A stretch of 64,000 nucleotides of DNA from Scenedesmus sp. PABB004 (Eukaryota), in contig JABVCE010000046.1 in assembly GCA_014905635.1 (NCBI GenBank), forward strand, positions 1 to 64,000. Direction: 5' to 3'. Shown here piece by piece: positions 9,701-58,656 of the stretch (within the stretch, counting starts at the first letter, position 1; every line of letters begins with the position of its first letter). The translations under genes were made by a program, and so were the position numbers. A model generated the notes under the pieces. That model was given only the letters and a program-made list of their open reading frames with translations, was not told the origin of the DNA and did not search any database.

Positions 9701-12700
9701 CTGGTGGCCCGCGCTGCTGGCGGCGCAGGAGACGCTGCAGCTGTCGGTGTGGGGCTGCTTCCTGCAGCGGCAGCACCTCGAGCAGGTGCGGGGTTTAGGT
9801 GCCCCGGGGGCGCTCCAGCCCAAGGGCTCGGGGCGGCCGCGGCGGCGGCGCGTGCCCGCGCGCCCCGCCTGTTGTGTTGCGCGCGCTCACCCACCCCGCG
9901 CGCCGCCGCCCGCGCGCCGCAGCCGGCGGCGCCGCTGCAGCTGCTCACGACGCGCGAGGCGACGCCGGCGGTCAGCTGCGTCAGCCTGCTGCAGCTCGTG
10001 TCGGCGCGCGCGCGCGCGGCCGCGGCCGCGGGCGTCGGCGGCGAGGCCGCGGCGGAGGGCATGCTCCCGGTGGTCGCCGACGACCAGATGCCCTCGGGTG
10101 CGGGGCGCTTTCGGGGGTCGGGGCTCGGCGTGGGCCGGGCCTCAGCGGGGGCGGTCGCCCGGGAGGGCGGCAGCGGCGCGGCAGCGGCGCGGCCGCCCGC
10201 CGGCCGCCGCGCGGCCCTGGCCCACTCGCGCCGCGCCCGGCACCGTCACCCTCAGGCGCGCTGGAAGACCTGCTGGACCACCTGCTGTGCGCCTCGCCCT
10301 TCGACCCGCCGGCCGAGCCGACAGACGAGCAGGCGGCGGCGGACCTCGAAGCCGAGGCGGCGGCCGCGGCCGCGTGGCGCCTGCGGCGCCGCCTGTCGGG
10401 CTTCGGCGGCGGCGCCGCGGCGGCGCCGGCCGCGTCGACGGCCTCGCCCGCGTCGCCGACGCCGCGGCGAGCGGCGGCGGCGAGCCGGCGCTCGGCGACG
10501 GCGGCGCGGCGCCGGCGGGCGAGTCCGAGGCGAGCGCGGGCGCCGGCGCGCCCGCGGTGCCCGGCGGCGCCGAGGCCGCGACCACCGCGCTGCTGGGCGG
10601 GCTGGAGGATGAGGCGCTGCGCCTGCAGGCCTGGCTGCACGCGCGGCTCGCGTCGCCCGGCGCGTCGCCGCCCGCCGCGCTGCCGCCGCTGCCGCCACCG
10701 CCGCCGTGCGGCGGCGCCGCGCGTGGCAGCAGCGGCGGCGCCGCCGCGCCCGGGGCGTCGCTGAAGCGCCTGGTGCTCTGCGTCGGCGCGGGGGCCGACC
10801 TCTCCTGCCTTGGCGCGGCGGCGCCGGGGCTCAAGACGCTGGGGCTGAGCGTGCCGCCGAGCCTCGAAGGTTTCAAGTCCTCCCCGGACGGCGCGCCCGC
10901 CGACGTCGACGCGCTGCCGGAGCTGCACCTCTGGCTCGGCGCCGCGGGGCTGGGCGCGCGCGCGGCGCGGGCGGCTCCGACGGCGCGGGCGGTGCCGATG
11001 GCGCCGACGGCGCCGACGGCGCCGGAGGCGGCGACGGCGCCGATTGCGCGGGGCGCTGGGCGCTGCCGGACGCCTGGCTGTCCAGCTGGCGCGCCCGCGT
11101 GGGCCACGCGGCCGCGAGCTTCAGCGACAGCCTGCTCGCGGCGCAGCACGCGCCCGCGGCGCGCCGCCGCCGGCGCGGTGCTTCGCGTCGCTGACCACGC
11201 TCACGCTGAGCAACCTCAGCCGCGGCGACGGGCCCTGGGAGCCCTCGGCGGTGCTCGGCGACGCGGTGCTCGGCGCGGTCGCGCTGGGCTGCCCCGGGCT
11301 CAAGACGCTGGAGGTGCGGCGGCGCCGGCGCGGGGCGCGGGGGGGGGGGGGGGGCGTGCGCGCGCCCGCGCGGCGGGCGGCCCGGGCGGCGCCCGCGCTG
11401 CTAGCTCCCCGCTCACGCGCGCCCCGCCGCGCCCGCGCCGCGCCGCGCCGCGCCGCACCGCGCCGCACCGCCGCCGCCCGCAGCTGTCTGGCGTGCTTGG
11501 CATGTCTGGCGCGGGGGCTGCTGCTGCTCGCGCGGCTGCGCGCGCTGACCAAGCTTCGCCTCGAGCAGTGGACCAACACAGCGAGCGACGTGAGAGACCA
11601 CGCCGCGCGCCGCGGCCGCGCCGCGCGCCGCGGCCGCGCCGCGCGTGCCCCCGCCCGCGCCGGGTGGTGCCCTCCCACCGACCCCGCCCCGCACCCGCCG
11701 CGCCTGCCGCGCCCGCCGCGCCCGCCCGGCAGCTCGCGGCGCAGCAGCTGCCGGTGCAGGTGGCCTGCCTGCCGCGCGGCCTGACCAGTCTGGCGCTGGT
11801 CAACGTTGACCCGCTGACCAGCGCCTGCCGCCTGCTGACGCTCGTGGGCGCGCTGAAGGCCGCCGGCGGCGTGGCGGGCGTGGTGTCGGCGGCGCAGGCG
11901 AGCCTCGCGGCCGCCGGCGCGGGGCCCGCCGGCGGCGCGCCGGCGGCGTCGCTCGCGACGTCGCTGCACCCGCGCGGCGTCGCGGCCGCGGCGGACTGGG
12001 TGCTTGCGGCGGCCGGCCGCGGCAGCGGGCTCGAGGGGCCCCCGGACGGAGCGGAGCTCCAGGAGCCGCCGCCGGGGCTGCCGCCGTTCTGCGGCCTCGG
12101 CGTCGGCGTGCTGAGCCGCCAGGGCGGCGCCCGTGCGGGCGCCGGCGGCCGCGACGGCGCGCCCGCGCCCGCCGCCGATGATCGTGGGCGGCCGCGAGTG
12201 GCTGCCGCCGCAGGCGCTCGCGCTGCTGTTGCTCGACACCTTTTTCAACTGCAGCGCCGCCCGGCGCGGACGCCGTGGTGGACCTCGACGCGGCGCTCGG
12301 CTGCTGCATGCGCTGCTGCTGCCTGCACGGCGGCCGCGCGTCGGGCGCGGCCGTGCCCGGCGCGGCGCGTTGCGGGCACGCCGCCGCGTGGGCGGCGCAC
12401 GCGCGCGAGCGCGCGGCCGCGCCCGCCGGCGTCGGCGCCGGCGACGGCCCGCCCCCGGGGCCGTGCTGCTGCCTCGGCGGCGTGTTTGGCTGCGTGGAAG
12501 ACCTGCACATCGTTGCGCAGGGGCCCGGCTTCGTCCCGCCGACGCGGCCGGGCGTCGCCGCGGGCGGGCTGCACCCGCTGCTCGCCGCGGCGCTGCCGCA
12601 CGCGGGCGCGCTGCGGCGCCTGCACGTCTGCGCGCCGGGTGCGCGCGCGCGCGCGCCGCACGCCCCGCGGCCGCGCCGCGCCGCGCCGCGCCGCGCCGCG

Positions 12701-57200: not shown

Positions 57201-58656
57201 ATGTGCAAGGAGCTTGGCCTCGTCGACCGCATCCCCCGCCTCGTCTGCGCGCAGGCGCGCGCGCGCCGCCACCTGCGCCGCGCCGCCACCTGCGCCGCGC
57301 CGCCACCGCGCCGCCGCCGCGGCGCCCCCGCGCCGCGCCGCGCCGCGCCTCCCTCCCCCTCTCTCTCGCGCGGGGCCCCTCCCTCCCCCCCTGCCCCCGC
57401 ACACCCTCGCGCCCTGCCCCCGCGCCCCGCCCCCCACCACACCCACCACGCCCACGCACCCACACCCCGCTGCCCCCCAAACTGCCCCCCCCCACCAAGC
57501 AGGCGGCCAACGCCAACCCGCTGTACCAGGCGTTCAAGAAGGGCTGGGCGTCCTACGAGCCGGTCAAGGCGCAGACGACGTTTGCGAGCGCGATCCAGAT
57601 CGGGGACCCCGTGTCCATCGACAGGTGGGCGTGTGGGTGTGGGTGTGTGGGTGTGTTTGTGTGTGGGTGTGGGGGGGGGGGCTTCTGAGGCGCGGCGGGG
57701 GCTGCCTGGCGTGCGCGCGCCCTCCCCCCGCTGCCTCCCCGCCCCTCGTCGAGCCCCCCTCCACCCCTGTCAACCCCTAAACCCATGAGCCCATGGTTCA
57801 CCCAGCCCCCCCCCCTCCCCGAACCCCTCCTAAACCCCTGAACACCCCCCGCCGCCCCGCCCGCCGCGTCCAGGGCCATCCTCGCGCTGAGCGACGCCGA
57901 CGGCCTGGTGGAGGAGGCGAGCGAGGAGGAGCTCATGGACGCGGCGGCGCGCGCCGACCGCACCGGCATGTTCAACTGCCCACACACAGGTGGGGGGCGG
58001 GGTGGTGGGGCAGCGCGGGGTGGGGAGTGGTGGGGCGCGACGGGCGGGGCGGGGGGTGCAGCGCGGGCGCGGGGGGCCGAGCAGCGCGGCGCGGCGCGCT
58101 GCGGGCGGCGGCCGGGGCGCTCGTTCGGACAGGGGCGGCCGCGGGCTGCGAGGGGGCCCACACCGCGCGCATCCCCCCGCCCCCGCCCCCGCCCCCGCCC
58201 CGGCCGCCCCCCGCCGCAGGCGTCGCGCTCGCGGCGCTGACCAAGCTGCGCGAGCGGGGCGTGATCGCGCCGAGCGACCGCACCGTCGTGGTCAGCACGG
58301 CGCACGGCCTCAAGTTTGCGCAGGCGCGGCGCGGGGGAGGCTGTGCGCTGCTTGGCGCGCTGCGCGCGCCGCGCCGCTGCGCGCTGCTCGCGCCGCGCCG
58401 TGCGCTCCGCCCTGCCTCGCACACGCTCCACTTCCCCCCCCCCCCCCCCCCACCCACACACACGCAAGCTTCCTCACCCCTTCACGCCCCCCCCCCCCAA
58501 AAAAACCCCTCAACCCCCCCACGCCCGCAGTCCAAGGTCGCCTACCACTCCAAGGAGGTCGCGGGGCTGAGCTGCGCGTACGCCAACCCGCCCGTCCCGG
58601 TGCGGGAGGACCTCGGGGCGGTCATGGACGTGCTCAAGAAGACCTTCAACATCTAG
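54214..58656 (+). CDS. THS1: Threonine synthase, plastid plant-type, 13 exons
   Basis: Transit-peptide-like N-terminus. Motifs [33 protein letters not shown] (PLP Lys), [37 protein letters not shown] and [11 protein letters not shown]. All 12 introns traced in frame. Confidence 0.97.
55978..56088. repeat. GGGTGT repeat followed by a poly-G tract at the 5' end of threonine synthase intron 5; poly-C tract at 56260-56286
   Basis: Directly visible. Confidence 0.9.

Follow-up and report, generated by a model that had tools for sequence, protein, structure and literature searches.

A telomere-like word before the 3′ splice sites of introns in a GC-rich Scenedesmus is most likely a branch-site signal

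Why should the introns of a green alga carry words that match the plant telomere repeat, and why should those words be oriented with transcription? The question is raised by positions 1 to 64,000 of contig JABVCE010000046.1 of Scenedesmus sp. PABB004 (assembly GCA_014905635.1), the whole stretch of DNA analysed here, which we call the window. An initial annotation had placed TTTAGGG-type heptamers near splice donors and their reverse complement just before acceptors, on the sense strand of genes lying on either chromosome strand, and had suggested a role at the RNA level: a CUAAA branch-point variant, a pairing element or a site for a protein that binds the G-rich strand. Every site that it gave does hold the motif in the orientation reported. 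Among the proposed roles, the branch-point variant fits best: the acceptor-side word, CCCTAAACCC, is most likely an intron branch site set within a run of C, and not a piece of telomere. Judging from sequence, we put at roughly 60% the probability that the word represents the branch-site region of spliceosomal introns, in the form CUNAAC (mostly CUAAAC) within a C-tract, because its position, its strand, the AG-free zone that follows it and its C-U-N-A core are the marks of that region.

The genome measures 39.8 Mb, with 78.5% GC and 7,092 genes, according to a comparative paper (PMC12571836); the window itself has a GC content of 73–85% along its whole length. Our sample consists of 50 introns from five gene models in this one 64-kb window. 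Queries with single exons led to NCBI proteins of the same strain named threonine synthase (ThrS), KCS1 and HTATIP2, the query exons being 97–100% identical, and all three proteins belong to one 120,161-base contig. GT/GC-AG splicing of the window reproduces the whole ThrS, KCS1 and HTATIP2 (P0132) proteins exactly, at 100% identity. ThrS aligns with its Tetradesmus orthologue (P0005) with no gaps from residue 34 onward, and KCS1 is collinear with its own (P0123) save for a 37-residue insert near introns 1–2; as these alignments are collinear, most ThrS and KCS1 intron borders are confirmed independently of the strain's own annotation. Both genes were modelled first for their many flagged sites, and the share of introns with the motif is therefore biased upward. 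Models of three further loci, those for LCM-RAP-NAD, a NAD(P)H-binding protein (NADb) and a small EF-hand protein (EFh), were added to offset this bias. Four intron boundaries, the flanks of one ThrS exon and one KCS1 exon, are common to lower-GC algal relatives, since the proteins of the relatives' read-through open reading frames (ORFs) lose identity exactly there. The 80 loci retained from a metagenome scan with the ThrS protein (P0004) as query were intronless relatives of 58–80% identity, so they offered no orthologous introns to compare.

The acceptor-side (C-type) word is both abundant and specific. There are 18 exact matches to CCCTAAACCC in the window against 0.02 expected from shuffles, and four to CCCTGAACCC against 0.08. 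Flanked by C-runs, TAAA is found 18 times, whereas the three alternative orders of its letters never are, which indicates a specific word and not a side effect of composition; TCAA (five times) and TGAA (four times) are found in the same setting. An unbiased count of words in the last 60 nucleotides (nt) of the first 27 introns put CTAAAC (nine introns) and TAAACC (11 introns) at the top, with 0.12 expected for each, and over the full sample CTAAAC is present in 10 of 50 tails where 0.21 were expected. A 17-mer, CCCTAAACCCCGCCAG/G (the slash marks the splice site), ends introns of three different genes (ThrS intron 6, KCS1 intron 12 and EFh intron 1), giving three matches against an expectation of 0. 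The window holds 22 CCCTAAA/TTTAGGG heptamers, comprising 17 sense C-type copies before acceptors, four sense G-type copies after donors and one in a 5′ untranslated region (UTR). Fifteen of the 17 acceptor-side copies lie in homology- or hand-defined introns of ThrS, KCS1 and EFh, and the remaining two, at 32755 and 22816, precede putative acceptors judged from local context only. On the donor side, the copies at 56997 and 57035 are in the verified ThrS intron 8, while those at 19984 and 19991 follow a putative donor in a gene of inferred strand.

Placement follows the intron and not the surrounding composition. The pattern CT[ACG]AACC occurs in the last 60 nt of 14 of the 50 introns, against a shuffle mean of 0.67 and a maximum that fell short of 14 in all 1000 shuffles, and in the first 60 nt of a single intron. 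Across the 41 introns of the three exactly mapped models, sense motifs reach a density of 7.3 per kb over the final 60 nt, compared with 0.84 in the middle and 0.41 over the opening 60 nt; the exons of these models (6804 nt) contain none. In all 12 motif-bearing introns of ThrS and KCS1, the nearest motif starts 11–44 nt before the 3′ splice site and no AG intervenes, although few AG dinucleotides would be expected there anyway because the tails are C-rich. Where the strand of the gene is fixed by Pfam or homology, 32 motifs are sense and nine antisense (p = 0.0004); together with the absence from exons, this supports the view that the words are oriented by transcription and act at the RNA level. 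An exception to the rule had been noted at about 28905 and is real: KCS1 intron 7 has C-type words at its donor end. Introns with the motif are longer than those without (median 209 versus 160 nt, p about 0.02) and show a steeper fall from G-rich to C-rich (0.61 versus 0.39, p about 0.02). From head to tail, the ThrS and KCS1 introns go from 0.53 to 0.18–0.20 in G and from 0.26 to 0.59–0.63 in C; the gradient in the LCM-RAP-NAD introns is weak. Folding prediction gives the motif core an unpaired probability of 0.76, compared with 0.48 for other tail positions (p = 0.001).

A branch-site reading would account for these features in the following way. The motif would mark the longer, G-rich-to-C-rich introns of conserved housekeeping genes, in which a C-run would replace the usual U-rich polypyrimidine tract around CUAAAC. 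The succession of C-run, CUAAAC and C-run would then give CCCTAAACCC, which by chance amounts to 1.4 units of the plant-type telomere repeat, and we infer that the likeness to telomeres is a by-product of composition. U2 small nuclear RNA and SF1 would recognise CUNA(A)C with one adenosine bulged as the branch nucleophile, so that the A of CUNAAC would be the branch nucleotide, and the first AG downstream of the word would serve as the 3′ splice site. An island of A and U would be kept unpaired inside a strongly structured, G/C-rich intron. In short, evenly GC-rich introns of other genes, CTCAC or CTGAC would serve instead, or no word would be recognisable. Where copies stand in tandem, as in CCCTAAACCCTAAACCC, local slippage of the word would be the simplest account, and the rarer reverse-complement copies past donors would form part of the G/T-rich 5′ section of the G-rich-to-C-rich introns.

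Comparison with the spliceosomal branch point (yUnAy or CTRAY; UACUAAC in yeast) shows how far the likeness extends. The algal word is intronic and sense-biased, contains C-U-N-A with U two bases before the A, and is followed by a pyrimidine run; its distance of 11–44 nt from the acceptor in 12 of 12 ThrS and KCS1 introns, its absence from exons and the AG-free zone behind it all agree with a branch site. It differs in having an A after the presumed branch A (CUNAAC) and in a tract of almost pure C. A survey of branch sites gives CTRAY as the general consensus, and reports that in intron-rich species the same hexamer is found in at most 22% of introns, the commonest in Chlamydomonas being CTGACC at 7.3% (PMC2483917). 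With CTAAAC in 20% of tails, our introns would sit at the top of that range and outside the CTRAY form, but this is a rough comparison from a small sample and the figures are not directly comparable, because the survey counted the last 200 nt and CTRAY forms only. Chlamydomonas introns are described as C-rich at the 3′ end, where a polypyrimidine tract would otherwise stand (PMC2830987). Chlamydomonas reinhardtii, a green alga of the same class, thus shares the C-enriched intron 3′ ends, whereas polarity is far stronger here (G drops from 0.53 to 0.18 while C climbs from 0.26 to 0.6) and a discrete A/T word stands within the C-run. With moderate confidence, we regard CUNAAC as a candidate variant of the known branch-site signal that lies outside the CTRAY form. 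Our search found no literature linking telomere-like words to algal branch sites or intron ends, with incomplete coverage of subscription journals.

Several observations weigh against this assignment. The word departs from yUnAy/CTRAY immediately downstream of the presumed branch A, where it has A instead of a pyrimidine. Canonical CTAAC is found in none of the 50 tails (1.25 expected), so it is specifically the telomere-like form that is preferred, and a plain branch-site model gives no reason to expect this. Canonical-type CT[ACG]AC occurs in 13 of 50 tails against 7.0 expected, and one or other of CTNAAC and CTNAC in 24; the other 26 tails have neither, and the full C-type motif is confined to 14 introns. 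These are unevenly spread among genes (ThrS 7 of 12, KCS1 5 of 15, EFh 2 of 3, LCM-RAP-NAD 0 of 14 and NADb 0 of 6). Compared with other A/T positions in the tails (0.68), the core has no significant advantage in predicted openness (p = 0.10). Near the donors of five of the 50 introns, the C-type family reappears in reverse complement with the same choice of three middle letters, and a 12-mer, CTAAACCCTGCC, found three times at acceptors, appears once in mirrored form in the head of KCS1 intron 5; the branch-site model leaves these donor-side G copies unaccounted for. Finally, the sample is small (64 kb and five models, two picked for their flagged sites and two hand-built).

The donor-side copies are real but rare. 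GGTT[CGT]AG is present in the first 60 nt of five of the 50 introns where 0.36 were expected, a count reached in none of 1000 shuffles, and in the last 60 nt of none of the 50; GG-TTTA-G occurs four times in intron heads and other letter orders not at all. The reported association with donors holds for this sample, although the donors at 9791 and 19984 are putative and that at 43727 is hand-built. Because the G word contains AG, this orientation would do harm close to an acceptor but none close to a donor, a hazard that may help to account for where the G words lie but not for their enrichment. Of the five introns with G-type heads, a single one also carries a C-type word in its tail. G-runs downstream of 5′ splice sites are known as intronic splicing enhancers in short GC-rich introns, and the G-rich heads here (G 0.53), with GGG runs right after the donor, resemble them; the specific GGGTTTAGGG word differs in being limited to five of 50 heads. 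As a separate observation, the most enriched words at 6–86 nt into the first 27 introns were GGCAG and GCAGGG (8–11 of 27 introns, 1.8–3.4 expected), which resemble the acceptor consensus GCAG/G and are the reverse complement of a tail word, CCCTGCC.

A rival explanation is that both ends of the intron are bound by sequence-specific RNA-binding proteins able to recognise the strands of telomeres as well, with a C-strand binder resembling PCBP or hnRNP K at the 3′ end and a G-strand binder (Gbp1- or hnRNP A1-like, recognising UAGGG) after the donor. Such proteins would define intron ends whose ordinary signals are swamped by G and C, with the branch site elsewhere or overlapping. hnRNP A1 binds UAGGG and the Chlamydomonas protein Gbp1p binds G-strand DNA as well as RNA. 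The preference for CTAAAC (10 of 50 tails) over CTAAC (0 of 50) and the excess and letter specificity of the G-type words after donors are what this explanation would lead one to expect, and the G-type heads, mostly without a partner in their own tail, would act alone. However, a branch site needs no additional factor to account for the position of the C-type word and its AG-free zone, the same position is taken by CTCAACC and CTGAACC, variants that do not match the telomere repeat, and G-type words are found in only 10% of introns. We consider protein binding at both ends unlikely as the principal explanation.

A composite of the two ideas is a mirror-image, two-part code of telomere repeats, in which a GGGUUUAGGG-type word past the donor would be read by a Gbp1- or hnRNP A1-like protein, while U2/SF1 or a C-strand binder would read CCCUAAACCC at the branch site. 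Recognition of telomere repeats would have been co-opted to mark intron ends in a subset of introns of an alga with nearly 80% GC, and the three middle-letter variants shared by both orientations, together with the mirrored 12-mer, would be its traces. This too seems rather improbable.

The opposite skews of the ThrS and KCS1 heads and tails also allow for pairing, as the initial annotation had suggested. A G-rich head (including GGGUUUAG) would pair with its own C-rich tail (including CUAAACCC), either to join the 5′ splice site with the branch site or to mask the latter, an arrangement resembling the intron stems described in yeast. Strong pairing is possible on these skews, with duplexes of about −70 kcal/mol; words in heads are the reverse complements of words in tails (GGCAGGGTTTAG versus CTAAACCCTGCC, for example), and ThrS intron 8 has both words and a motif core predicted to be less open (0.47). 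What the pairing idea requires is that arms match their own partners, and here it fares badly: own and swapped arms differ little in alignment score (29.9 versus 27.6, p = 0.46) or duplex energy (−72.8 versus −67.1, p = 0.11), head-to-head duplexes are equally stable (−69.5), and a C-type tail accompanies a G-type head in just one of five introns. An intron-specific inverted repeat or hairpin is rejected on the same comparison, own arms being no more complementary than swapped ones. The pairing element is the part of the original proposal that found no support, and as a general account of the words we think it has a slim chance.

The words might alternatively have no positive function. Short telomeric repeats would have been inserted at random, during break repair or by telomerase, or have arisen by slippage, and selection would have purged the harmful orientations; the AG-bearing G-strand form would be removed near acceptors and the C-strand form tolerated in pyrimidine tails. 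True two-unit repeats at 19984–20002 and 43830–43846, and a two-unit variant at 27877–27893, are suggestive of such events, and the AG-containing G orientation is indeed found in 0 of 50 tails. On the other hand, most sites are single words, the full telo-box AAACCCTA occurs only four times, and the same place is also taken by variants whose middle letter is C or G and which are not telomeric. The motifs peak in the last 60 nt (7.3 per kb versus 0.84 in the middle) instead of being spread over the C-rich half, and sense copies are far commoner than antisense ones (32 versus nine). We doubt that filtered insertion explains the pattern; at most, it would account for the few two-unit sites.

Two known kinds of telomere-like sequence can be compared directly. 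Plant telo boxes are DNA-level promoter elements that cluster in 5′ UTRs and in introns 1 and 2, following a 5′-to-3′ gradient along the gene (PMC3022908). The likeness to the plant telo box (AAACCCTA) is that of a short word within genes, identical to part of the plant telomere repeat, but here the word stands at intron 3′ ends throughout the gene (ThrS introns 2–12, and introns 2 to 13 overall). With four copies of AAACCCTA in 64 kb and placement in introns 2 to 13, the words do not behave as telo boxes; the copy at 25430–25436 is the only one in the window with a telo-box-like placement. Nor do they form an interstitial telomeric array: CCCTAAACCCTAAA is found at two places only, although this is the plant-type unit and may not be the species' own. 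Interstitial telomeric sequence would be placed without regard to transcription, unlike the 32 sense and nine antisense motifs here, with the C form in 14 of 50 tails and one of 50 heads.

It is highly improbable that the introns are introners, the offspring of a transposon family whose terminal inverted repeats are G-rich on one side and C-rich on the opposite one: such an element would read alike on either strand, as the pattern does, and the ThrS and KCS1 intron lengths do bunch near 200–250 nt, but own arms are not specially complementary, the longest matches in an all-against-all BLASTN of the 50 introns of this window reach 66–72% identity in both orientations, as composition predicts, and four boundaries are common to lower-GC relatives, and with inter-intron identity this low and boundaries shared we reject an introner family.

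The gene map of the window (table 1) came from a Pfam search of 450 of the 540 six-frame ORFs of at least 60 amino acids, leaving aside some short ORFs and all those beyond 58.7 kb, and gives genes without exon borders; maps of GC periodicity and codon usage served as a rough guide to strand only. An Rfam search of the window returned no family reaching its gathering score, and Tandem Repeats Finder returned 640 rows of low-complexity repeats. Two NCBI models within the window look wrong. P0132 (HTATIP2, 1205 amino acids; 44695–50953, plus strand) connects an LCM methyltransferase with a FAST/RAP and a NAD-binding protein across a 1049-nt ‘intron’ at 46264–47312, and looks like three genes merged into one. 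In the KCS1 model, the 37 residues that are not in the Tetradesmus orthologue (30329–30727, minus strand) are probably intron sequence retained in the annotation.

The introns have other peculiarities. Seven of the 50 start with GC instead of GT (first bases 57255, 58324, 29519, 43727, 24754, 24560 and 50703), a share far above the usual eukaryotic level; five of these donors read CAG/GCGCGG or a close variant and the other two GCGAGG and GCAGGA, and the two in ThrS are backed by the gapless orthologue alignment. In ThrS intron 5 (plus strand), about 50 G follow one another near the start (56035–56090) and about 28 C near the end (56262–56287). Several intron heads contain (GTGGGTGT)n-type repeats and some tails CA repeats. 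KCS1 intron 7 (28603–28920, minus strand) is C-rich from its first bases, has a CCTCACCCC array in its tail and ends in AAG, not CAG.

Table 1. Genes of the window and sites of telomere-like words (C-type, acceptor-side form; G-type, donor-side form; a slash marks a splice site).
Feature	Position	Strand	Remarks
Sec62-like gene	near 1–1150	-	weak Pfam Sec62 match
NAD(P)H-binding protein gene (NADb)	23.8–25.4 kb	-	Pfam; 6 introns, from relatives found by search with a 43-amino-acid exon plus hand placement
KCS1 (3-ketoacyl-CoA synthase)	26137..31269	-	exact spliced match to P0122; 16 exons/15 introns, exact mapping to NCBI protein
GYF protein gene	34.6–37.5 kb	+	Pfam
Small EF-hand protein gene (EFh)	42.9–44.0 kb	-	Pfam; 3 introns, hand-built
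LCM, RAP and second NAD-binding domain (LCM-RAP-NAD)	44.7–51.0 kb	+	Pfam; one merged NCBI model; 14 introns, exact mapping to NCBI protein
eIF3j gene	51.6–53.3 kb	-	Pfam eIF3_subunit
Threonine synthase (ThrS)	54214..58653	+	exact spliced match to P0004; 13 exons/12 introns, exact mapping to NCBI protein
ThrS introns 2, 4, 6, 7, 8, 10, 12		+	CT[ACG]AACC in last 60 nt
KCS1 introns 3, 9, 10, 12, 13		-	C-type motif in last 60 nt
KCS1 intron 11		-	has CCCTAAAACC
Sec62-like gene, before CAG/G acceptor	801..835	-	two CTGAACC; acceptor putative, from context only
Right after putative donor	9787..9800	+	CAG/GTGCGGGGTTTAGG, G-type; putative gene model
About 20 nt after putative GTGCGT donor	19984..20002	- if gene on minus	GGGTTTAGGGTTTAGGG; strand by codon-usage map only
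Before putative acceptor	22770..22820	-	three CTAAACC; hydrophobic frame follows; strand by codon-usage map only
NADb 5′ UTR, about 30 nt before start codon	25430..25436	-	sense CCCTAAACC; not intronic
KCS1 intron 13 tail	26753..26820	-	four C-type words, last is CCCTAAACCCTGCCCCTATAG/G
KCS1 intron 12 acceptor	27098..27114	-	17-mer CCCTAAACCCCGCCAG/G
KCS1 intron 10 tail	27878..27891	-	CCCTGAACCCTGAACCCC
KCS1 intron 7 donor end (exception)	28898..28904	-	C-type CTCAACC inside CCCTAAGCCCTCAACCCCC
KCS1 intron 5 head, GC donor	29416..29506	-	sense GGCAGGGTTTAGCAGGG twice, GGGGTTGAG twice; no C-type in own tail
Before putative acceptor CCGGCAG/G	32757..32790	+	CTAAACC and CTGAACC; ORF of ordinary amino-acid make-up follows
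EFh intron 3, before acceptor	43272..43304	-	CCCTGAACCCC ... CCCCTAAAACCCC
EFh intron 2 head	43706..43712	-	sense GGTTCAG 15 nt past GC donor (43727); hand-built model
EFh intron 1 tail	43799..43846	-	CCCTAAACCCTAAACCCC and CCCTAAACCCCGCCAG/G; three CTAAACC copies altogether
eIF3j gene, before acceptor	53246..53266	-	CTAAACC and CTGAACC
Site in ThrS gene	55872..55916	+	acceptor-side in the initial annotation
ThrS intron 6 3′ end	56565..56581	+	CCCTAAACCCCGCCAG/G
ThrS intron 8 head	56995..57039	+	two GGTTTAG (inside GGGGTTTAGGGG), 14 and 52 nt past donor; sole intron with both G-type head and C-type tail
ThrS intron 8 tail	57160..57187	+	two CTAAACC, 32 and 11 nt from 3′ end

If the acceptor-side word is a branch site, it shows how splicing signals can be reshaped when a genome's GC content drifts up to nearly 80%, with a run of C taking over from the pyrimidine tract while the branch site survives as a rare A/T island, and in this case the unusual CUAAAC form would be common to a fifth or more of the sampled introns. 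It also urges caution, as telomere-like words within genes may be unrelated to telomeres. A strong, position-specific branch word would aid intron prediction in GC-rich algae and the design of transgene introns for Scenedesmus-type production strains.

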